Shown: positions 1 through 37,711 of the stretch, one piece after another
How the letters are laid out: every line of letters starts with the position of its first letter
Numbering within the stretch: the first letter of the stretch is position 1
Virus record (IMG/VR): IMGVR_UViG_3300025910_000007
Location: 20,484 to 84,483 of that record
DNA: 64,000 bases
Direction: 5' to 3' (one strand)
Source of the DNA: a virus
Notes under the pieces: model-generated
Database searches by the model: none
What the model was told of the DNA's origin: nothing
What the model saw: only the letters and a program-made list of their open reading frames with translations
Made by a program: the position numbers and the translations under genes

Positions 1-618
1 CAGTTCAGTACCAGACAGTTCGATGCCCTTGTCGGCATGTTCCTTCAGCACCTTCTCGGCGATGACATCGTCGTCCCCGTTCAGGGACGTTTCGCTTACG
101 GTCAGCTTCTTGAAGGATTCGCCCAACTTGTAACACAGTGTCTTGAGTCGAGCATTCCACGGCCGTTTCTGACCGCGTTCCCACGGCTGAAGTTTGGGGT
201 CCAGCAATCCAGCAAAACGCCAGATCGCACCCGCAGTCTGAGCACGGGCAACGTCGATATGGGCCAGCAGCCCCGCGGCGATCACCGCGTCTACCCCGGC
301 GATGCTCATGGCCCAACGGCCCAATGGGCGGGCCTGCGCGAATTCCCGCAGCACCCGGGCTGATTCTCTTTCCAGTCGCTCCAGCCGCTGCTTCATCTCC
401 GTAATGAGGACCGGATCGGCAAGGATATCGGTACTGCGTTCATGTGCCGACTCCTTGTTGCGGGCGCCGACACGCAGTTTCTGGATGCCGTAGTACATGC
501 CTACGGCTGCGGCCATCTGTTCGCGGTCGAACGTGTGAGCTTCAGCCAGCTGGTCCTTGGTGTACCGCGCCGTTTCCGGCTCCATCAGCAGCGGGGCGGT
601 TCCGTTCGTCGTCTTCAT
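1..618 (-). CDS. Tas-like (TasA-type) Nop-domain / IS110-related RNA-binding protein, 3' end outside the window
   Basis: Not in the ORF track because it runs off the edge. Hand translation from ATG 618 (SD CAGGAG upstream) is open for 206 codons: MKTTNG...MYYGIQKLRVGARN...GRWAMSIAGVDAVIAAGLLAHIDVARAQTAGAIWRFAGLLDP...GQKRPWNARLKTLCYKLGESFKK. This resembles the IS110 Transposase_20/Nop-fold segment; no N-terminal RuvC/DEDD domain is visible. It lies directly downstream of a 36-nt dual-repeat array. Confidence 0.85.
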   Translation of the reverse strand, partial: MKTTNGTAPLLMEPETARYTKDQLAEAHTFDREQMAAAVGMYYGIQKLRVGARNKESAHERSTDILADPVLITEMKQRLERLERESARVLREFAQARPLGRWAMSIAGVDAVIAAGLLAHIDVARAQTAGAIWRFAGLLDPKLQPWERGQKRPWNARLKTLCYKLGESFKKLTVSETSLNGDDDVIAEKVLKEHADKGIELSGTEL

Positions 619-643
619 GGGTTTCTCCTGTTTGCAAAAGGGA

Positions 644-897
644 CGTTCACAGATAGCAGTTCTGTCAGCAGCAGCTCATTCAATCGTTGCAGTTCTATCT
701 TTCGTCTCAGCTCATTCAGGGGATACAGTTCTGTCTGTCAGTGCAATTCATTCTGTTCGTGCAGTTCTGTCTGAGGGTCCAGTTCATTCTCTCGGGGCAG
801 TTCTGTCATACTCCGCAGTTCGTTCCGCCATTTCAGTTCTATCTGTCTGCTTAGCTCATTCTCTCGGAGCGGTTCTATCGGAGGGGTCAGTTACTTC
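644..897 (-). ncRNA. TIGR-like array: 7 units of 36 nt with two alternating 10-nt repeats separated by 8-nt variable spacers
   Basis: The minus strand parses as GAA(T/C)GA(A/G)CTG-N8-GA(C/T)AGAACTG-N8. Spacer pairs: acccctcc/ctccgaga, agcagaca/aaatggcg, cggagtat/ccccgaga, gaccctca/cacgaaca, cactgaca/tatcccct, agacgaaa/caacgatt, ctgct/ctatctgt (one spacer in the last unit is 3 nt short). The array is intergenic on the coding strand. Confidence 0.85.
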
Positions 898-1382
898 ATC
901 GCTTCCTTCATCAGTCCGGCCAGTTGCGCCTCAGTCCAGGCATCTGCAACCATCTGCCCGTCCTGCATTCCCGCTGCCACTGCTTCGAGGAACGCAGCCT
1001 GCCGGGCGTTACCAATCTCACGTTGGCGGTATCCTACAGCCGATTTCATCACCTGCGTTCGAGTAGCGACGGATAGCCGCGTCCCATCAGGCAACGGCCA
1101 GTTGTAGAACTTGCCGCATGCCACTACTATCGAATCACGAAACCGGCGACTGTAGGTTCGCGGCGACCCGCAATCACGGGCAATCACGCAGCGGGCTTCC
1201 CGCTGGACTTCTCGCAAGGCTTCTTTGGCGGCCATTTCTACCGCCGCACGTACCGTCATGGCATTGGCCAGAATCACGACCACCATTTCTTCGACGGCCA
1301 TTGGGGTATAACCGTACTGCTCATAAGCAGCCGTAGCGGCGTCCCGAATTGACACAGCAGTATCTGCCTGTCCGCTCTCCAT
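891..1382 (-). CDS. hypothetical phage protein
   Basis: 163-aa ORF in the operon; its stop overlaps the first array repeat. Confidence 0.6.
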   Translation of the reverse strand: MESGQADTAVSIRDAATAAYEQYGYTPMAVEEMVVVILANAMTVRAAVEMAAKEALREVQREARCVIARDCGSPRTYSRRFRDSIVVACGKFYNWPLPDGTRLSVATRTQVMKSAVGYRQREIGNARQAAFLEAVAAGMQDGQMVADAWTEAQLAGLMKEAMK

Positions 1383-3942: not shown

Positions 3943-5124
3943 TTAGTCCTCGTCATCTTCCGGGTCTTCGTCATCCCCATCGTCTTCATCTTCCTCCGGC
4001 TCTTCGTCGTCCTCGTCATCCGATTCATCATCTTCCTTGACGGCCGACGCCTTGCGCTTCGGGGCCGGTGCATCGTCCTTGTCATCATCATCGTCTTCCG
4101 GCGTATCTTCCTCTTCTTGAATGCGGGTGACGTCGCTCGGCTTGATCTTGGCGTAGGCCGTCCCCTCTTCATCTTCCAGCGCCAGCAGCCCCTTGGATGA
4201 AACGGCGGTGATCTCGCATTCCTTTTTCTTGTACATCACCATCCCGCCGATGACGAAATCCTCCGCCGGTTCAGTAGTATCCTTGTCATCGTCGGCGTCC
4301 TTGTGCGCCTTGGTAGGGGCCGCGTCTTCATCATCCCCATTGTCCGACGCACGAGACCGGCGCGGGGCCTCATCGTCGTCATGATCTTCAGCGTCAACGC
4401 TGCCGGCGTTCAGCAACATCGTCAGCTTCTTGGGATCGGGGCGAATCAGCATGGCTTCCAGCGACGACGTCCGCTCCAGCATGTCATCGGGGTATTCGTA
4501 CTCACGCGGCTGGAAATCGATGCGGCCGACCTGCCGGTATTTCTTGTTGGTGATCGCCACCCGCAGCGTCTGGCCCGTTTTCAGGTCGAAGAAGTCCTTG
4601 TCCCCGCGCAGAGCGTCGATGGCTACCTTGAGTTGCTGGCCGAAGCCAAAGCCGCGATTGAAGTAGGCGGCGCTCAGCACCTTGAGCGGGTTCTTCAACT
4701 TGCCCGGCTTGTCGTTGACCCAGAACAGATTGCGCCGCTGCGGCTGCAACGGATCGGATTCCCCCTTGGGCACCCGCGGCAGTTCGTTACGCATCTTGCA
4801 GACAGGGCAGGGGGCGTCGTACACCTCACGCAGACAGCAGCACTTGTAGCCGAAGCCGCCGTCCGCTTCGGGCACCGAATGCTGTGCGTAGGTCAATTCC
4901 CAGTGCTGGAACCCTGCGTCAGCGCTGGGATTGCGTACCGCATCGCCCACGATGTAGGGCATGATGTCGAACGACAGCACGTCTTCGGTCAGGTCGAACC
5001 ACTCAACGCCTTCTGGCAGCTTGACCGCTGTCGGTCCACGAGTCTCGGACTGCTTCTTCGACCACTCGGCCGCGGACGTCTTCCGTGCCTGTTCCTTCGC
5101 CTTTTCCCTCTGACTCTTCGCCAT
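3943..5124 (-). CDS. single-stranded DNA-binding protein (gp32-like, Zn ligands, very acidic tail)
   Basis: H...C...CPVC metal motif, long D/E-rich C-terminus, located next to the recombinase. Confidence 0.7.
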   Translation of the reverse strand: MAKSQREKAKEQARKTSAAEWSKKQSETRGPTAVKLPEGVEWFDLTEDVLSFDIMPYIVGDAVRNPSADAGFQHWELTYAQHSVPEADGGFGYKCCCLREVYDAPCPVCKMRNELPRVPKGESDPLQPQRRNLFWVNDKPGKLKNPLKVLSAAYFNRGFGFGQQLKVAIDALRGDKDFFDLKTGQTLRVAITNKKYRQVGRIDFQPREYEYPDDMLERTSSLEAMLIRPDPKKLTMLLNAGSVDAEDHDDDEAPRRSRASDNGDDEDAAPTKAHKDADDDKDTTEPAEDFVIGGMVMYKKKECEITAVSSKGLLALEDEEGTAYAKIKPSDVTRIQEEEDTPEDDDDDKDDAPAPKRKASAVKEDDESDDEDDEEPEEDEDDGDDEDPEDDED

Positions 5125-5263: not shown

Positions 5264-5773
5264 TCACTCATCGGTGTTTCGCTCCCGCCGATGCTTGCTT
5301 TGGAACGCAGTCACGGCTTCATTACGGCGGTGTTCATCCATGTGTTCGCGGGCTGCGTCCGTTGATACCCGCGGCTTGGCCCAGTAGCCGCTCAAAAAGA
5401 GGTCAACCTCCTTGGAAATCGCGGTCTTCCTATGTTCCAGTGTACTTACCGCAGCCTGCGCCATATCGACGGCGTGCTTGGCAGTGATTTCCTTGGACAG
5501 TGCCTTGCGGTAACGTGGGTCCAACAAGACCGCTTCCTCGACTGCTTCTTTGGGTTGTGCTTTCACCAGCCCAAAAGCCTCGGGGTTCTTGCGTACTTCC
5601 TGCGCGACTTCGGCGGCGACTACTTCTCGTTGCGCCTTGGCCCGTTCATGATCCTGGCGGACATCAGCCAGGATCGTTGCGTACTGGTGATAGAGGCGAA
5701 CGTGGTTTTCCAGTTCAACCTCTAGCCGGAAACGGTCGAATACGAAGAAATCGGGCTCTTTGTCGGTTTTCAT
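5264..5773 (-). CDS. putative recombination mediator (UvsY-like coiled-coil protein)
   Basis: All-helical ~170 aa between the SSB and clamp loader; the call rests on context and overall pattern. Confidence 0.4.
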   Translation of the reverse strand: MKTDKEPDFFVFDRFRLEVELENHVRLYHQYATILADVRQDHERAKAQREVVAAEVAQEVRKNPEAFGLVKAQPKEAVEEAVLLDPRYRKALSKEITAKHAVDMAQAAVSTLEHRKTAISKEVDLFLSGYWAKPRVSTDAAREHMDEHRRNEAVTAFQSKHRRERNTDE

Positions 5774-5955
5774 TTCAATGTATCTCCGGATTGAACGCGG
5801 CGAACCTTGACGGAACTGCGGTCGAACCGATGAACCTTTTCCGTTTGGTCTTTGCTGCCGGCCCAAACGGACACAGCTTCTTCGATGTACTGTTCCATCT
5901 CGGCGATTGTCGCACCGTCAGGAACATCAATGGTCACGAGAAACAACCGAATCAT
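5770..5955 (-). CDS. hypothetical protein
   Basis: 61-aa ORF with ATGA coupling. Confidence 0.5.
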   Translation of the reverse strand: MIRLFLVTIDVPDGATIAEMEQYIEEAVSVWAGSKDQTEKVHRFDRSSVKVRRVQSGDTLK

Positions 5956-6544
5956 CCTGCACCTCAGTTGCCCACACCCTTAAGTATCCCGCTTCTTCCC
6001 CGCGTTCTTCCAGCCAATCTGCCAGGATCAGCAGTTTGCCCATGTCCAGGGGCAGCAACAGCACTCCGTCCAGCATCTTCTGTGCTGCGGCGAAAATACC
6101 AGTACGGGTGCGGCGTCGTACCAGTTCGCGAATGACTTCTGCGTGCAATGCGGTAAAGATTTCGTCGCGGGGGCTATCATCGTAAGGACGCAGAAACCAG
6201 CGGCAGCCGGCCGGTTCGCCTAGTATCTGATCGCACTCATAACAAACCTTGGCGAAGAATTCCTCAGCTTCCTCAACTGTTGCATCGGACGCATTTGGAT
6301 CAGCTGATGCATCCATCCAGAAACAGAACACTATTGCGTCCGCCGATTCGATAGGCCAATCACGTACTGACTGCACTGGTGGTGGCGAACAGGTTACGCC
6401 CTGTATCAACCGAGCGTCGTCCGATACCAACGCTTCCCGCAATGCTTCCAGCCCCTTTTCGGGCAGCTGATGGACAATGCCTCGTCGCCAGGTATCTCGC
6501 CAGTCTTCCATGCATATCCCCGATTTAGTATCCCAATCAACCAC
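5927..6544 (-). CDS. planctomycete-type conserved protein with a C-terminal TIGR02996-like motif
   Basis: GLEALREAL..DDARLIQGVTCSPPP..VRDWP...EAEEFFAKVCYECDQILGEPAGCRWFL resembles a Gemmataceae/Isosphaeraceae conserved hypothetical family; ends with ILADWLEERGEE. Confidence 0.6.
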   Translation of the reverse strand: MVDWDTKSGICMEDWRDTWRRGIVHQLPEKGLEALREALVSDDARLIQGVTCSPPPVQSVRDWPIESADAIVFCFWMDASADPNASDATVEEAEEFFAKVCYECDQILGEPAGCRWFLRPYDDSPRDEIFTALHAEVIRELVRRRTRTGIFAAAQKMLDGVLLLPLDMGKLLILADWLEERGEEAGYLRVWATEVQDDSVVSRDH

Positions 6545-7544
6545 CGCGGCCGCGAACCACTTCGAGACACGCCCAGACCAGTCCGTTGAACCCGTTGCGG
6601 CCAGCGTTGTACATGGGATCGCGGAACGTCTCCAGTATCAACCCCGCTGTGCCCGCAGATTTGACGTCCTTTGCCTTCATTGCAGTATCCGCTGCGTTGG
6701 CCATCACCAGCCGCCGCACCATCTCGGGGTCTTCGCCGCCTTCCTTGACGTCCTTCAGTATCTTCGCCACCGCGTCCCATCTGCCTTGTTGCCAGAGCAA
6801 TGCTTTGACCAGATCGAACGCCTTTTTCTGTACGCCTTCAGGCGCCAGCGCGGCCAGTCGTTCAGCGTCATCAGTGTATCGCAATGCTTTTTGCAGATCG
6901 TTGAGTGCGGTGCGGGCACTGCCTTCCGCTCGTTGCACGATTTGATCGATCAGCTGTGATTTGACGGGTAGTCCTTCCTTGTCCGCAATCGTTTTGACCA
7001 GCGTCGTCAGGTCCGTAATGCTCAGCGGTTTGAGAGCGATCACTTCGCAACGGGTACGGATAGCCTTGATGACCTTTTCGGGATCGGTGGTAGCCAGGAA
7101 GAAGTAGACGTGAGACGGAGTTTCTTCCAGCATGTTCAACAACGCTTGTTGTGCATGCGAAGTTCTGCTTAGCGACTGCACCTCCTCGAAAAACCAGATG
7201 CGACACTTGCCTGAACGGGGGGAAATGCCGATGCGCGATTTGATCCTGCGCGCTACGTTGATCGGTTCATCCCAAGCGGCGCAATCCTCTTCTGCGTAAT
7301 CAGCCTCAGCACACTGTAGCTTCTTTTGCATGATACGGACCATCGTGGTTTTCCCCGTACCTGATGGTCCAGTCAACATGATGGCATGCGGCACTTTGCG
7401 AGCCTTGACCATGTCAGATAGCTGCCGCACTGCGTCTGGCTGTCCGACGACGTCCGCCCATCGCGCCGGCCGCCATTTGCGGTAGAGCTGACTGGCCTCA
7501 TCCCCATTACGTTCAGTCTGCGGGGCAGTATTCGTTTCAGGCAT
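6537..7544 (-). CDS. dnaX: clamp loader, DNA polymerase III gamma/tau (DnaX)-like AAA+ ATPase
   Basis: LYRKWRP..W.DVVGQ, GPSGTGKTT, EEVQSLS, ALLNMLEETP, ATTDPEK, IRTRC, GSARTALNDL. Confidence 0.9.
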   Translation of the reverse strand: MPETNTAPQTERNGDEASQLYRKWRPARWADVVGQPDAVRQLSDMVKARKVPHAIMLTGPSGTGKTTMVRIMQKKLQCAEADYAEEDCAAWDEPINVARRIKSRIGISPRSGKCRIWFFEEVQSLSRTSHAQQALLNMLEETPSHVYFFLATTDPEKVIKAIRTRCEVIALKPLSITDLTTLVKTIADKEGLPVKSQLIDQIVQRAEGSARTALNDLQKALRYTDDAERLAALAPEGVQKKAFDLVKALLWQQGRWDAVAKILKDVKEGGEDPEMVRRLVMANAADTAMKAKDVKSAGTAGLILETFRDPMYNAGRNGFNGLVWACLEVVRGRGG

Positions 7545-13734: not shown

Positions 13735-14128
13735 CGTTTTCCCCAAAAGGGTTTTGTGGCGATGGTAGGGCATGAGACGCACATCCAACGTGTCCGCATC
13801 TAGGACATTTGCCAACGCCCTTAACAATTTCGTCCAGCGTCGCGGTCAATTGTCGATCATGGTAACGAGCGGCCCGTGCCTCGAACACGAACAACGCAGC
13901 CTTCAGCAAACCGATACCCGCTTCGGTTTCCGCACAGGGCAACTGGCTGTTGACATATTCGGCGCGGTCGATCAACGCCCGCAGCACTTCTTGCATCGTC
14001 GTGCCAGGGTGATGGCCAATGTTGCCGGGGTACTTGGTCCCTTCTCGCTTGACGAATGTAAGCGTTTGGAGCAGTTCTCCGTCTAGCGGGTCCAATAGGT
14101 ATTCATGGCCGCGATCAACCACTATCAC
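13697..14128 (-). CDS. hypothetical phage protein
   Basis: LTFVKREG.KYPGN...PGTTMQEVLRALIDR; probable GTG start coupled to the upstream stop. Confidence 0.55.
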   Translation of the reverse strand: MIVVDRGHEYLLDPLDGELLQTLTFVKREGTKYPGNIGHHPGTTMQEVLRALIDRAEYVNSQLPCAETEAGIGLLKAALFVFEARAARYHDRQLTATLDEIVKGVGKCPRCGHVGCASHALPSPQNPFGENDERETEVGRLSP

Positions 14129-15363
14129 AGTTTCAACCCCATTTTTGGCGCCAGCTTTTGTGCGATGTGCCATTCCACCAACGAGTCCATCCCGTTATAC
14201 AGCAGCAGTTTTTGTAGCGGGGCCTCGCGGATGCGGTTGGGTGAATTGCCACCCCCTTTGGATGTCAGAAATGGCTTGATTTCATCATCGTAGCTTTCCC
14301 CACCTAGTAGCGCGAACGTCATGAACTTGGCGCCGGTGATACCCCGCCGGTTGTCCGCTACATGAGACGCCAGCATGTCGTCGATCTTCCAGTTCCGCGG
14401 CATCACGCCCAGCTTGGCCAACGACCACCGAATCTCGAACTGAATATGCTGCCCGATCTTGGGCGAGTCCGACAGGAGCATTTCTTTAGTGGCTTGGATC
14501 GCTTCCCCGTGCCAGGGGTAAGCGACGCTGATCACCCCGTCGCTAACCGAACAGCTGTAGATTTCGGCATGCGCCCCGTCCGGCTTCAAAGTGGTAGTTT
14601 CATAGTCGAACGCCAGCGGCTTCCCCACCGCCGTCATCTTCCGCACCGCTGCTGCTGCCTTGTTCGCGTCCAGCTCCACCCGCACCATCGCCTTGTAGTC
14701 AGGCGGGCCGTCCGGCCACGGCCGTCCCTTCAGTTTCAGCGCCCATTCCAACTGCTTTTCAAAATCGTTCAGCACCAATGGGTCGGGCTTGTCGTTGAAC
14801 CGCTGAGCACTGCGTAGGACGTGGCTAGGATGCCAAACGGGTGCTACCCAGGCGTTTAGTTGCTGGTTGGGGATGCGCCAACCGACCCATTTGGTGACTT
14901 CGCCGGGGTCTTCCTTCCACAGCCAGCCGATGACCGACTTGACCGCGTGTTTGCCCAACAGGATCACCAGCTCGGGCTTCAGTGCTTTGATAGCGTTGAC
15001 GACGGTAGGACGGCAGTAGCCGATTTCCTTGTCGGTAGGTTGACGGTTTTTGCCCTTGGCGTCGCTAGCGCGGCAGGCGATGGCGTTCATAATCCAGCAA
15101 TCGCGGGTCAGTTCGCACTTGAACCGACGCAGCGTTTGCTTCAGCAGATCACCAGCGGGTCCGACAAACGGCCGGCCGACAAGGTCTTCGTTTTCACCGG
15201 GGCCTTCACCGCAGATGAGGATTTTGCGGGCGCCGTCTCCATCAATCGGCATGCGAGGGCTTGCGCACTTCTTGTCGAGCTTACACGTCCAGCATTGTGG
15301 TTGCGGCGGGACCAGCAGCTTGAGCGAACGGGTTGTGACGGCGGAAAAGAAACCGGCCATCAT
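14125..15363 (-). CDS. family-4 uracil-DNA glycosylase fused to a PolA-type 3'-5' exonuclease (N-terminal half of a split polymerase)
   Basis: CxxC, GEGPGENED..GRPFVGPAG, WHPSHVLR; then ExoI AFDYETT, ExoII HIQFE, ExoIII YNGMDS. Confidence 0.88.
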   Translation of the reverse strand: MMAGFFSAVTTRSLKLLVPPQPQCWTCKLDKKCASPRMPIDGDGARKILICGEGPGENEDLVGRPFVGPAGDLLKQTLRRFKCELTRDCWIMNAIACRASDAKGKNRQPTDKEIGYCRPTVVNAIKALKPELVILLGKHAVKSVIGWLWKEDPGEVTKWVGWRIPNQQLNAWVAPVWHPSHVLRSAQRFNDKPDPLVLNDFEKQLEWALKLKGRPWPDGPPDYKAMVRVELDANKAAAAVRKMTAVGKPLAFDYETTTLKPDGAHAEIYSCSVSDGVISVAYPWHGEAIQATKEMLLSDSPKIGQHIQFEIRWSLAKLGVMPRNWKIDDMLASHVADNRRGITGAKFMTFALLGGESYDDEIKPFLTSKGGGNSPNRIREAPLQKLLLYNGMDSLVEWHIAQKLAPKMGLKL

Positions 15364-18640: not shown

Positions 18641-19540
18641 TCACTTGCCATTACCAGAGAAGAATCCAACGGCCGGACGGCGATTGGCTGGCTTGAATGG
18701 CCAGGGATATTCCGATAGCCACTTGCGCAGCCCCTCGAAAAACAACAGGTTGGCAATCTTGCGCTCGCTGTGGCGATTGATGACGCCATGTTCGATAACG
18801 TTGCCGTCCTTGTCGTTCTTGCCCAGCGGTACGCCAATCTGTTTCAGCCATTCCCGCACGATCCGTTGTTCACCGGGTGACAGCGTCGAGTAGTGCTTAC
18901 CCTTGGCTCGCGTAGGGGCGTCCTGCGACATGGTAATTTGGTAGGGCTCTGTTTCGTATGTGAACCTACCGCCACGCTTGTGCGGTAGCAAGATACCGCC
19001 AAACGCCCCTACCTTCGTCCACGTAGCAGAATCCACGCTCCACCACGGATAGCGCAACAAACATTCGTATCCGGTGACGGCGAATCCATGCAGTTTTACT
19101 TTCGGTAGCCGCTTTGGAGTGTCGCAAACGAAATCAAACACGCGGTCTAACCACGTTCGACATGCTGGCGATCCGAAGCTTCCTACTAGGCCGCCGATGG
19201 CGATGAACTCATAACCACGTCGAACGTAGCGACGCAGCCATTTCAGATCGGTGCGAAAATGTACCACCGGAACCGGCGCCAGTCCGTGTTCTTTTTCGAG
19301 GTACTGCTGATTACGCCATGTTAGTTCTGGTTCTGGGATCGCGTCCACATTGGCGTAATAGTCGATGTACTTTCGGTATTTCTTGACGAAGGCCGCGTAC
19401 TCATCCATGTACCGCCAGAATTCTTTGGTGTCGTAATAACTCCAGGGTGATTTTCCGTGCTTCTTTCCGTACTTCGTGGCGGCTGTCCAAAGAGAGAAGC
19501 TGCCACTGTCCAGAAAAAACAAGCCGTTTTCCGTAGTCAT
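18641..19540 (-). CDS. DpdA/TGT-like 7-deazaguanine transglycosylase paralog 2
   Basis: FFLDSGSFS, YYANVDAI, PVPVVH, IAIGGLV, KLHGFA, PWWSVDSATW; adjacent to folE/queCDE. Confidence 0.8.
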   Translation of the reverse strand: MTTENGLFFLDSGSFSLWTAATKYGKKHGKSPWSYYDTKEFWRYMDEYAAFVKKYRKYIDYYANVDAIPEPELTWRNQQYLEKEHGLAPVPVVHFRTDLKWLRRYVRRGYEFIAIGGLVGSFGSPACRTWLDRVFDFVCDTPKRLPKVKLHGFAVTGYECLLRYPWWSVDSATWTKVGAFGGILLPHKRGGRFTYETEPYQITMSQDAPTRAKGKHYSTLSPGEQRIVREWLKQIGVPLGKNDKDGNVIEHGVINRHSERKIANLLFFEGLRKWLSEYPWPFKPANRRPAVGFFSGNGK

Positions 19541-19571
19541 TTCATCTGCCGTGAAATAGATTTGTGCGGCC

Positions 19572-20510
19572 CTAGAACGATACCGAGGCTCCGGACAGCC
19601 TCGCAAGCAAGAGTCTATCAAATCGGGGACACGGTATGTCGAAAAAAGATAGCATGATGCGAGCTTTTGTTTTCAGCACCGTTTCAGGTTGTCCGCCTTT
19701 GGCTCCGGCGCCACTGTAGTAAATCTTCAGGGGCTTATAGCTTCCATCGGGTTGCAGCTTTTGCAATTGTTTCCGCAGCCATTCATAATATTTAAGGTAG
19801 CATGCGTACCAAACTCTCGGATTAGCTAAATCACCTGCGGAGAACCCTAGATGATCGAGCCATCGCAAAACAGCTCTACGATGAAGCGGAGGCAGCGTGT
19901 CGAGATGGCCTTGATTACTTTGTTTGGTATTACCGACTTTTATGATGATTGCATCCTTTTCGGCTGTCCATACACCTTTTTTCGTTAGCGGTAACACTAA
20001 ATATCCGCGGCTACCAAGATGCGCCCAACGTACTGTATCGACTGAATGCCAAGGAAACTGAGCCATCGACCGATGTCCTCCGATTCCAAAACCATGCACT
20101 TTCACTTGCGGGATTCCGCGGCTATTGCACAGCTGATCGAAAACCAGACGAATCCACTCCTTACTCGTTCTTCTAGTTGTCGAGGCTGCGATACCGCCCA
20201 GACCTATGTATCGGTAGCCCCGATTTATGTAGTGTCGAATCCACTGCAAATCTGTTCCTAGGTGTATGACTGGAACGGGAGAAAGCCCGTGCTCTTTTTC
20301 GAGATATTGCTGGTGGTCCCAAGACAACTTTGCGTCAAACATCACGTCGACATTAGCGTAGTAATCAATCGCGATTTCATTGGCATGAATAAAAGCCGCG
20401 TATTCATCCATGTACGTCTTGTAACTGGAGGCCGTCGCTTTCGATTTCTGCCAAAGTGAAAATGCGCCGGAATCTAAGAAATGTGAACGGGGCGGCCAGA
20501 ATTCGGTCAT
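19572..20510 (-). CDS. DpdA/TGT-like 7-deazaguanine transglycosylase paralog 1, with a C-terminal IYYSG...PE.VL...MLSFF module
   Basis: HFLDSGAFS, YYANVDV, PVPVIHLG, YIGLGG, KVHGFG, PWHSVD. Confidence 0.8.
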   Translation of the reverse strand: MTEFWPPRSHFLDSGAFSLWQKSKATASSYKTYMDEYAAFIHANEIAIDYYANVDVMFDAKLSWDHQQYLEKEHGLSPVPVIHLGTDLQWIRHYINRGYRYIGLGGIAASTTRRTSKEWIRLVFDQLCNSRGIPQVKVHGFGIGGHRSMAQFPWHSVDTVRWAHLGSRGYLVLPLTKKGVWTAEKDAIIIKVGNTKQSNQGHLDTLPPLHRRAVLRWLDHLGFSAGDLANPRVWYACYLKYYEWLRKQLQKLQPDGSYKPLKIYYSGAGAKGGQPETVLKTKARIMLSFFDIPCPRFDRLLLARLSGASVSF

Positions 20511-20514
20511 GGTT

Positions 20515-21096
20515 TCACCCGCGGATGAGACTGAGCAGTTCTTGGCGCACGACGGATTCACGAAAAGCCCCTGTCAATGACGATGTTACCAGTTCCGAAT
20601 GCTGTTTCTGTACACCGCGACAAACCATGCAGAAATGAGTCGCTTCCAGTATACAAGCGGCCCCCAGCGGCTTCAGATGCTCGTCCAGCGCAGCAGTCAC
20701 TTGCTGACATAGACGTTCCTGTATCTGCAAACGGCGAGCATAGATGTCGAGAATTCGTGCCAGTTTGCTTACTCCAATCACTCGTTTGTCTGGGATGTAT
20801 GCGATGTGGGCGCTACCGAAAAATGGCTGTAGGTGATGTTCGCAAACAGAATGGAATTCGACATTGCGTAACACTACCATCTCGTCGCAGGCCCCATCCT
20901 CGAACACCTTCAGCACGTCTTCGGGTTTTTGTTTGTAACCTGCGAACAGCTCATCGTAACTGCGCAGCACGCGATCTGGGGTATCTCGCAGCCCCTCGCG
21001 CTCGGGGTCGTCCCCAATGTACGTCAACAACGACAGAACGGCTTGACGGGCCTGACAGTACCAGATGGTATCGCCGGCCGGCTTCGGTTCATCCAT
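20515..21096 (-). CDS. folE: GTP cyclohydrolase I
   Basis: REGLRDTPDRV, SVCEHHLQPF, GVSKLAR, RRLQIQERL, HFCMVCRGV. Confidence 0.96.
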   Translation of the reverse strand: MDEPKPAGDTIWYCQARQAVLSLLTYIGDDPEREGLRDTPDRVLRSYDELFAGYKQKPEDVLKVFEDGACDEMVVLRNVEFHSVCEHHLQPFFGSAHIAYIPDKRVIGVSKLARILDIYARRLQIQERLCQQVTAALDEHLKPLGAACILEATHFCMVCRGVQKQHSELVTSSLTGAFRESVVRQELLSLIRG

Positions 21097-21103
21097 GCGT
21101 TCC

Positions 21104-21784
21104 TCATTTCGACAGCAATTCACAAGACAGGTAGGACAGCGGGTCTTCTGTGTTGTTGGCCGCGAACGCGGTAAGCCGCTCCTGGCAGCTTCCGCACTTG
21201 CCGCACGCGAGCGGCTGCGCCTTGTAGCAGGTGCGTGTCAGTGCGAACGGAACGTTCAGAAGCAGCCCCTCGCGCACGATGTCGTCCTTGGTAAGTTGCA
21301 GAAATGGCACTCGTAAGGAAACCTTGCCATCAGTCGCAGCAGCAATGGCTTCTCGTGCAGCGTCGATGAATCGTGGGCGACAGTCCGGATAGATGAAATG
21401 ATCCCCCGCATGAACGCCTAGATACATGGTCGCCGCTCCGACGCTCTCAGCAAGACCAGCAAGGACAGATGCGAAAATCAGGTTGCGACAGGGGACCACT
21501 GTTTGGCGCATGCTCTCTGCTTCGTAGTGTCCCTCCGGTATATCGCCACCACTCAACAACAAATCAGAACGGAATCCCGCCATGACACCAGATAAATCGA
21601 TGAGACGAAAAGACACCTCGTAGTAGCCCGCGATCTGCGATGCCGCTTGATTTTCGTATTGATTGTGCTTGGACCCATAGTAGAAGGCGACGGCCATCAG
21701 ATCGTTGGGACGGATATCTCGCAGCACTTGGGCTAGCAGCACAGTGGAATCCAAGCCGCCAGACAGCGAAACTATCGCTCGCAT
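21104..21784 (-). CDS. queC: 7-cyano-7-deazaguanine synthase
   Basis: SLSGGLDST, VPCRNLIF, YPDCRP, TCY...CGKCGSC. Confidence 0.96.
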   Translation of the reverse strand: MRAIVSLSGGLDSTVLLAQVLRDIRPNDLMAVAFYYGSKHNQYENQAASQIAGYYEVSFRLIDLSGVMAGFRSDLLLSGGDIPEGHYEAESMRQTVVPCRNLIFASVLAGLAESVGAATMYLGVHAGDHFIYPDCRPRFIDAAREAIAAATDGKVSLRVPFLQLTKDDIVREGLLLNVPFALTRTCYKAQPLACGKCGSCQERLTAFAANNTEDPLSYLSCELLSK

Positions 21785-36822: not shown

Positions 36823-37711
36823 TGATGGTTGCGGCAGTTAGCCCAACTGAAGATGATCCCGCAGCTGGTCCTTCATGCCCGCCGGTGCGTACTGAATGAA
36901 CTGTTGAAACTCAGGAATCTTGGCAGTGTCTCCCGCAAGGATATCGCGGGACAGGTTGAGCAGATGACAGTACAGTCCGAAGGATGACATGGACTGATGG
37001 GCCTGCTGCTGACGCTGCTGTTCTCGGGTCTTCATCGGTTTCTCCTGTTTGGCGGGCGAATGGGAATCACTGTGGACAATTCACGTCGATGGCCACGATG
37101 CGGTTGCGCTCGCTGTAGCGGCCGACGAAAACGGTGCGGGCCTTTTCGATCATGGTCTGGTCGGTATCGTCGGCCGTCTGCTGGACGAAGACGTAGCGGT
37201 TGCGGAACTGGCCATTGATCTCAACAGCGACCCGCACGCGGCGGCATACGCCTAGGATGGTAGATTGGTGGTTCATGGGTTGCTCCTGAACAAAGTGTCG
37301 GTGCTGCCGCCGCAGTACGACTCCGGATCGCTCCGTTTCAAATAGCGACGGTAGCGAACTGCCGGCAGATGCAGGAACGTCAGCACGTGTTCGATCAAAT
37401 CTCGTTTGAACAGTGCCACTTCGCGGGACTGTGGATAGCCGGATACCCACGTCGCCCGCCACGGCAGCCGTTTCTTCAGGGCGTCGATGACTGCTGACGG
37501 GACGTAGCGCAGGAACGCCACTTTGCCCAGCCGCGGTATCGCGAAGAAGTCCTCTTCGTACATCAGCCCGGCCTCTTCGGCATGGTCACATGCCACCAGC
37601 CAATCGCCAGGTGCGTAATCCTTCGCCTTGGGGTTGGCTTTCCTCTTGGCTTCGCTCGCGGCCCGCAACGCTGCCTTGACTTCAGGGGTCATCTTGCTCA
37701 TCGTCGTTCCC

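Follow-up and report, generated by a model that had tools for sequence, protein, structure and literature searches.

We analyzed a stretch of viral DNA of 64,000 nucleotides (nt), hereafter called the window, which comprises bases 20484-84483 of the 84,483-nt IMG/VR virus record IMGVR_UViG_3300025910_000007. The completeness of this record, as given by CheckV, is 96%. At the left end of the window, the minus strand carries an array of two alternating short repeats, followed by a gene that we call tasA because its product resembles the proteins of the RNA-guided TIGR-Tas systems. The left window edge truncates tasA, and the full record (referred to below as the contig) was used to read the whole locus. 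The first-pass annotation of the window, which a model had made from the letters without database searches, had proposed extending the contig in order to recover the C-terminus of the protein; the extension yielded a full open reading frame (ORF) of 339 amino acids (aa) and, beyond its stop codon, a second array of 11 units. The features of this putative TIGR-TasA locus are collected in Table 1.

Table 1. Features of the putative TIGR-TasA locus and other sites named in the text; positions are those of the window unless marked as positions of the contig
Feature	Position	Strand	Remarks
163-aa gene of unknown function	891..1382	minus	directly upstream of the upstream array
Upstream TIGR array	672..897	minus	7 edge and 6 loop repeats, 8-nt spacers; 6 predicted 36-nt tigRNA units
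Edge repeats of the upstream array (GAATGARCTG type)	starts 897, 861, 825, 789, 753, 717, 681	minus	from the print of the 18-nt register
Loop repeats of the upstream array (GAYAGAACTG)	starts 879, 843, 807, 771, 735, 699	minus	from the print of the 18-nt register
Degenerate seventh unit	639..671	minus	loop repeat GACAGAACTG intact at 666-657; 5-nt spacer A 671-667; 8-nt spacer B 656-649; decayed edge repeat 648-639
AGGAG ribosome-binding site	625..629	minus	6 nt ahead of the tasA ATG, read from the sequence
tasA, first 206 codons	1..618	minus	ATG at 618-616; the gene extends 399 nt plus stop past the left edge
tasA, full ORF of 339 aa	contig 20085-21101	minus	minus strand of the window
Downstream TIGR array	contig 20070-19663	minus	outside the window; 11 units with 12 edge and 11 loop repeats
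Spacers of both arrays	682-887; contig 19673-20060
PDDEXK_15 / RusA-like endonuclease gene	contig 19061-19639	minus	outside the window; 23 nt past the second array
One-mismatch self-match of upstream array unit 6	21595-21610		inside minus-strand ORF 21104-21784
Copy of the tasA start stretch	37028-37051		precedes a 65-aa ORF, 36838-37035 (minus)
Phage protein with TIGR02996 domain	contig 14002-14361	minus	34.5 bits against a cut-off of 29.05

The upstream array (window 897-639, minus strand) keeps strictly to a period of 18 nt, in which 10 conserved bases are followed by 8 variable ones. Two repeats of 10 nt each, GAATGARCTG and GAYAGAACTG, alternate in it and form a 36-nt unit; both begin with GA and end with CTG. 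Because the downstream array starts and finishes with the GAATGA type, we designated this type as the edge repeat and the other as the loop repeat. The intact units are bounded by edge repeats 0 (window 897-888) and 6 (681-672); past the latter, the register breaks by 3 nt, the spacer A of a degenerate unit being shortened by this amount. The minus-strand dual-repeat array with periods of 18 and 36 nt that the first-pass annotation had described is therefore real throughout its length, and of the 7 units that it had counted, six are intact and the seventh is degenerate. We also searched with a composite pattern consisting of the edge repeat, 8 arbitrary bases and the loop repeat, tolerating up to 3 mismatches. 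The 64-kilobase (kb) window contains 6 matches, all of them at 690-897 on the minus strand and exactly 36 nt apart, against an expectation of 0.01, and this number was reached in none of 100 shuffles; in the 10-kb locus there are 17 matches, again with 0.01 expected. Tandem Repeats Finder also reported periods of 36 and 18, for the best-kept part (726-807) only.

The downstream array begins 11 nt past the tasA stop codon and ends 23 nt ahead of the next gene. Its unit 9 has a 10-nt spacer B, so that the two arrays together hold 16 full units with spacers of 8+8 nt, unit 9 being the seventeenth. Both arrays lie on the tasA strand, and a scan of the whole 84.5-kb record for self-identity at a lag of 36 nt detected solely these two arrays flanking tasA. 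The tasA start codon lies 53 nt past the last intact edge repeat of the upstream array and 20 nt past the decayed one, and the distance of about 25 nt given by the earlier annotation is thus roughly right. Rfam gave no matches at E-values (E) up to 1.

It is extremely unlikely, in our view, that the repeat region encodes a repeat protein, an alternative that the earlier annotation had itself named. The 18-nt period does equal six codons, and on the plus strand one stop-free frame crosses the upstream array and two cross the downstream array, including open frames of 169 aa at 557-1066 and of 238 aa over the second array. However, these ORFs run antisense to the operon and overlap the tasA start and both neighbouring gene ends, and the gene strand has 2-11 stops per frame in the upstream array and 2-12 over both arrays. 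The 'repeat peptide' of the 238-aa ORF changes midway, because the downstream spacer that is 2 nt longer shifts the register. In addition, the variation falls in solid 8-nt blocks and not at third codon positions, and stops occur in all six frames in 30 of the 55 arrays that we tabulated from relatives of this locus (see below).

The protein points in the same direction as the arrays. All four motifs that had been quoted from its truncated part are present in the full ORF, and the curated NCBIfam equivalog model NF052498 (TIGR_Tas_endo, 'TIGR-Tas system RNA-guided endonuclease') matched it with 130.3 bits against a cut-off of 100, whereas the NCBIfam IS110 model NF033542 reached 22.3 bits against a cut-off of 140, and on residues 72-138 only. 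The comparison of hidden Markov models that had been suggested as a check thus came out on the side of Tas. In a search of the PDB with the single sequence, TaTasR (9MTY) was found at 1.2e-21 and SpTasH at 2.4e-12; with a profile of 24 family members, these values became 6.9e-31 and 1.3e-19, followed by IS621 (3e-5) and ISCro4 (3.5e-4). The protein also keeps all 10 columns that are invariant across 120 aligned homologues, His326 included. The ESM Atlas holds its own model of the protein (predicted template-modelling score 0.80, predicted local distance difference test 0.82), and the nearest clusters are viral homologues (template-modelling scores 0.76/0.91); since these neighbours belong to the same family, they do not serve as an independent test against solved structures of Tas or Nop5. 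An IS110-family transposase was considered and rejected, given the lack of a DEDD/RuvC-like domain and the score of NF033542.

The alignments to the solved proteins start at residue 121 of TaTasR and residue 68 of TasH, in both cases past the nuclease domain, and near residue 39 of our protein, so that only 38 residues lie ahead of the region aligned to the Tas coiled coil. In all 120 aligned homologues, at most 79 residues precede the start of the alignment. A RuvC or HNH domain would not fit into this space, and Pfam showed no match to such a nuclease domain at E up to 10; we therefore assign the protein to TasA and not to TasR or TasH. The first-pass annotation had left open TasH, in case an insertion after the motif ESFKK should hold an HNH domain. 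This charged insertion comprises 56 residues (173-228) and is of equal length in two homologues (P0009 and P0017); insertions of more than 25 residues occur at this point in 9 of the 120. It gave neither an HNH nor any other Pfam match at E up to 10, which excludes TasH. As a separate observation at the start of the gene, the 24-nt stretch with the tasA ribosome-binding site and start codon (window 611-634) recurs with 96% identity elsewhere in the window, ahead of another ORF (Table 1), which looks like a shared translation-start context.

We next consider the relatives of TasA. Among clusters at 90% identity, 382 of 8,000 scored candidate proteins were found at E <= 0.001, none of them more than 52% identical; among clusters at 50% identity, 2,425 were found at E <= 0.001, 402 of which reached 1e-30 or better. 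A scan of IMG/VR for TasA relatives with the single sequence gave no match, and an alignment-based scan gave 303 matched stretches with 275 confirmed relatives, the best 80 loci of which were kept for comparisons. A region with 36-nt periodicity, measured as self-identity at this lag, is present in 68 of these 80 loci, compared with 0-4 of 80 at eleven other lags; the 12 loci without such a region include fragments with little flanking sequence. The consensus units of the relatives are built as 10+8+10+8 nt on the tas strand, mostly with GAGCGAGCCA/G and GAGAGAACCA/G as the two repeats. In addition, 25 genome loci with TasA relatives come from many phyla, with identities of at most 50% (the 50% applying to a fragment of 50 residues, and at most 40% to longer matches).

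For a closer comparison of the repeats, we tabulated 55 distinct arrays of relatives with at least 6 units each, after dropping low-complexity regions with a consensus that did not begin with GA, AA or GT. The last three bases are identical in both repeat types in 39 of the 55 arrays, and CCA is mixed with CCG in only one. Statements on published systems, here and below, follow the TIGR-Tas literature (PMC12045711, 10.64898/2026.09.09.750476, PMC13421893 and 10.64898/2026.08.11.744272). According to these sources, the edge and loop repeats of TIGR arrays begin and end with common, covarying motifs (box D and box C), a rule with which the matched endings in 39 of 55 arrays agree. The CTG ending of our repeats occurs in none of the 55 arrays, in which CCA and CCG dominate; a CUG ending is therefore uncommon within this sample. 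The closest relative, on a 41,711-nt IMG/VR record, has a TasA that is 50-63% identical, and the partner gene is likewise followed by tasA with an array on either side. The two arrays (positions 3975-5110 and 5930-6943 of the extracted locus L115) are much longer, with approximately 31 and 28 units, and have different repeats.

Taken together, the protein family and the array anatomy, which are the basis for identifying TIGR-Tas, make it very probable that this locus is a dual-repeat TIGR-TasA system on an uncultured soil phage of approximately 84 kb. The proposal of the first-pass annotation, a TIGR-Tas-like system with a TasA-like, nuclease-less protein of the Nop/IS110 type, is borne out by the NF052498 match, the homology to solved Tas proteins and the arrays of the relatives. 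Published TIGR repeats are 8-12 nt long, with spacers of roughly 9 nt and a unit of 36 nt (Faure et al. 2025, PMC12045711). Our 10-nt repeats are inside this range, and the spacers of SpTIGR measure 8+8 nt, as ours do.

Intact genes and arrays are found at the locus, and the published relatives allow us to infer how the system may work. Both arrays would be read on the tasA strand, probably within a long co-directional replication/recombination operon. A TasA dimer would bind the ends that edge and loop repeats have in common, and the precursor would be cut in the middle of each edge repeat by means of a C-terminal loop with the invariant His326 and the aromatic residue 319. The predicted 36-nt tigRNA consists of 5 nt of edge repeat, the 8-nt spacer A, the 10-nt loop repeat, the 8-nt spacer B and another 5 nt of edge repeat. 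In each of the 16 full units, spacers A and B would then pair with opposite strands of an adjoining 16-base-pair (bp) DNA site, with no need for a protospacer-adjacent motif. Because TasA has no nuclease domain, its complex would be expected to bind and bend the DNA and to block transcription or replication instead of cutting. Of the published proteins, FpTasA binds 36-nt RNAs (Faure et al. 2025, PMC12045711), and MbTasA was shown to bind target DNA and, in a reporter assay, to repress transcription reversibly. The likeliest targets are host genes or competing mobile elements, and a role as a repressor or in inter-phage competition, which the earlier annotation had also put forward, would agree with what two papers propose or report for TasA.

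Several observations count against this identification. Between 1 and 3 mismatches are present in several of the repeats, and each array includes a unit whose spacer has an irregular length (5 nt upstream, 10 nt downstream), so that some decay of the arrays is possible. A promoter and terminator scan found no convincing terminator-like or promoter-like site beside either array on the gene strand, whereas TIGR arrays 'typically' finish in a terminator (Faure et al. 2025, PMC12045711). Among the sequencing runs listed with the locus there is no RNA run, and both entries are DNA contigs. The residue at the published processing tyrosine (Y289 of SpTasH) is Trp319, and, as described below, no target was identified for the guides.

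With respect to the possible decay, we considered whether the locus could be a remnant in decay or after domestication: a fragment of an IS110-type transposase, or a TasA without working guides, with arrays that are mere repetitive DNA. Besides the mismatched repeats and the two units with irregular spacers, this notion is favored by the Pfam result, which is limited to a sub-threshold match to Transposase_20 (E 0.016-0.037, 14.8-16 bits against a cut-off of 21.3), and by the label 'transposase' carried by PHROG 4285 and the Atlas clusters for TasA. However, these names are automatic and older than the Tas family. The ORF is intact and retains 10 of 10 invariant columns; the curated Tas model was passed and the IS110 model failed; and the protein has no DEDD/RuvC-like N-terminal domain. 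Moreover, the repeats in the arrays of the relatives are at least equally degenerate, with many consensus positions below 75%. We therefore consider a remnant very unlikely.

Of the published pair of processing residues, TasA keeps the histidine and has tryptophan in place of the tyrosine. In SpTasH, guide maturation depends on Y289 and H296 on the C-terminal loop. His326 of TasA, which stands opposite H296 in the alignment, is conserved without exception among the 120 homologues, and the residue at position 319 is Tyr in 76 of these, Trp in 34 and Phe in 10. TaTasR likewise has Trp at the tyrosine position of the processing loop, and its guide processing is protein-dependent (Faure et al. 2025, PMC12045711). 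For this reason, we read Trp319 as a probably tolerated variant.

We also searched for targets with the 16 units that have 8+8-nt spacers; neither the degenerate upstream unit nor downstream unit 9, with its 10-nt spacer, was included. Because the consulted text gives no pairing geometry, both strand arrangements were scanned. By our own arithmetic, a perfect 16-bp match is expected approximately 4e-5 times per guide and arrangement in an 84-kb genome; in large public collections, we estimate tens to hundreds of chance matches per 16-mer. The phage's own genome contains no perfect match to any guide. The single self-match with one mismatch, from unit 6 of the upstream array, lies within a coding region, and there is also one match with two mismatches; mis-paired controls average 0.07 and 0.43 such matches per arrangement, respectively, and both sites were set aside as probably due to chance. 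In three related phage records, 216,881 nt in total, the 16 guides likewise had no match even when one mismatch was allowed. Two one-mismatch matches of these guides in the 80 loci of the relatives (846,388 bases) were judged to be chance as well, and, conversely, none of 1,590 non-redundant spacer pairs from these 80 loci, taken in both registers, matched this phage perfectly. The search for spacer matches that the first-pass annotation had suggested was thus fruitless in phage DNA: no target was identified in this phage, the loci of the relatives or the three related phages, no host genome being among the scanned DNA. As for the occurrence of the locus itself, the whole of it is found in a rhizosphere run, and a soil metagenome of a second study (2024) contains an identical 151-nt contig, which covers the end of the downstream array and the start of the next gene (positions 5629-5779 of the extracted locus L005).

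The earlier annotation had also remarked that some spacers resemble each other and had taken this as a sign of related targets. We compared 34 spacers: two from each of the 16 full units, one of 8 nt from downstream unit 9 (spacer A) and one from the degenerate unit (spacer B). One pair does differ by at most one base. Six pairs differ by at most two bases, against 3.2 +/- 1.8 expected, and this count was reached in 10% of shuffles. The resemblance is thus borne out only in part. At three differences or fewer there are 32 pairs against 18.7 expected, an excess that accompanies a position-specific base bias, the shuffles not being column-preserving. Of the 34 spacers, 16 have C and 2 have G at position 1, and 15 have A at position 8. 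This bias may mean that the effective repeat is longer than 10 nt, or that spacers have a common ancestry.

The locus lies inside a co-directional replication/recombination block, in which the order is a UvsX/RecA-like gene, two genes of unknown function, array, tasA, array, and the genes for a PDDEXK_15 protein, a TSCPD-domain protein, an SbcC-like protein and a metallophosphatase. The TAA stop codon of the 163-aa gene directly upstream (window 893-891) is held by the first edge repeat of the upstream array. Its 163-aa product has no assignment in Pfam, PHROG, NCBIfam or the Atlas, and its family counts only 6 proteins in 5.8 billion. Among the 80 relative loci, homologues are found beside tasA only in those four whose TasA is most similar to ours, and a separate IMG/VR scan with an alignment of the 163-aa protein returned the same 4 contigs only. 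The PDDEXK_15 assignment is based on 30.1 bits in Pfam against a cut-off of 27. Operons of a ParB-like gene with tasA (tasParB-tasA) have been described (Faure et al. 2025, section 44, PMC12045711), and we considered the 163-aa protein as such a partner. This found no support, since neither it nor three homologues showed ParB in Pfam (E up to 10), PHROGs, NCBIfam or the Atlas, the published ParB assignment having relied on a search of HHpred grade. Over all 81 loci, no neighbour family is conserved in more than 14. A neighbour cluster found in 66 loci was discarded, as its members are ORFs that run antisense across tasA and the arrays. Elsewhere on the contig, a phage protein has a TIGR02996 domain (Table 1). 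We take this domain to be typical of Planctomycetota and Myxococcota, and it is presumably a possible hint to the host of this phage.

This neighbourhood raises the question of whether TasA supplies guide binding to a larger module specific to this clade, in which it would act with the 163-aa protein, the PDDEXK endonuclease or both, so that targeting would lead to cleavage or recombination in trans and not simply to repression. In each of the four closest relatives, the 163-aa gene immediately precedes the array or tasA; its stop codon lies within the first edge repeat of our upstream array, as noted above, and a PDDEXK_15 homologue lies downstream of tasA in three of the four. The locus is surrounded by UvsX-like, SbcC-like and SbcD-like genes, and the DNA bend made by TasA has been speculated to aid recombination (Faure et al., PMC12045711). 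However, the four relatives are related phages that share their gene order (UvsX, PDDEXK, SbcC), so that synteny alone suffices to explain the linkage. Moreover, the neighbour families are not widely conserved, and the sole consistent partner in the literature is the ParB-like gene, which the 163-aa protein does not recognisably resemble. We therefore consider such a module improbable. We likewise give little credence to the more specific proposal that TasA, instead of repressing on its own, is the guide-reading core of a recombination-linked module in a small clade of phages, which would cut or recombine the DNA of the host or of rival phages in trans.

The TIGR-Tas class was published in 2025 (Faure et al., PMC12045711), and a 2026 preprint provides a catalogue of 4,126 dual-repeat arrays. 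The published TIGR-Tas studies drew on 20,096 tas loci, which may include this one, and our locus leaves knowledge of the class unchanged. It does illustrate that TIGR arrays are recognisable from reading the sequence alone, and through it the family gains a near-complete phage genome that carries 16 regular guides of two parts plus one with a 10-nt spacer B. Its local oddities are the CUG ending of the repeats, the Trp at the processing Tyr, the 56-aa insertion and the rare 163-aa upstream partner. It provides a test case for guide maturation by a loop in which Trp replaces Tyr, for the tolerance of a CUG ending, and for repression of host or rival-phage genes by a phage TasA.

Finally, we compared the locus with the known systems. 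IS110/IS621 (PDB 8WT6) has a distantly related RNA-binding domain, found with the family profile only at 3e-5. However, TasA lacks its DEDD/RuvC-like catalytic domain, and the locus has guide arrays instead of a single bridge RNA. TaTasR is the best solved relative and uses 36-nt guides. Its C-terminal loop (KPW-LEHGGH-YI-PP-W) is nearly identical to that of our TasA, including the Trp at the 'Tyr' position, whereas its N-terminal RuvC domain (residues before approximately 120) is absent here, and its spacers are 9 nt long with repeats of the form UG...CCA, compared with GA...CUG in this locus. SpTIGR-TasH of Salicola phage CGphi29 (PDB 9w03, 21kl and others) is phage-borne and has 16 nt of spacer per guide, as here. 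The Nop domains align, and its processing residue H296 corresponds to His326. In contrast, SpTasH has an N-terminal HNH domain and cuts DNA, and TasA has neither this domain nor room for it; Y289 of SpTasH also stands against Trp319. The FpTIGR system of Flavonifractor plautii (PMC12045711) resembles the locus in having a solo, nuclease-less Nop-domain Tas protein, dual repeats and 36-nt units, although its spacers total 18 nt compared with 8+8 nt here. With the dual-repeat TIGR-TasA systems of the same source, the locus also shares arrays on both sides of the gene and carriage by a phage; the CTG repeat ending and the 56-residue insertion after ESFKK set it apart, FpTasA being compared by description only. 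No new mechanism is shown by the locus and its local variants are minor; it is a genuine TIGR-Tas system and not a new kind.

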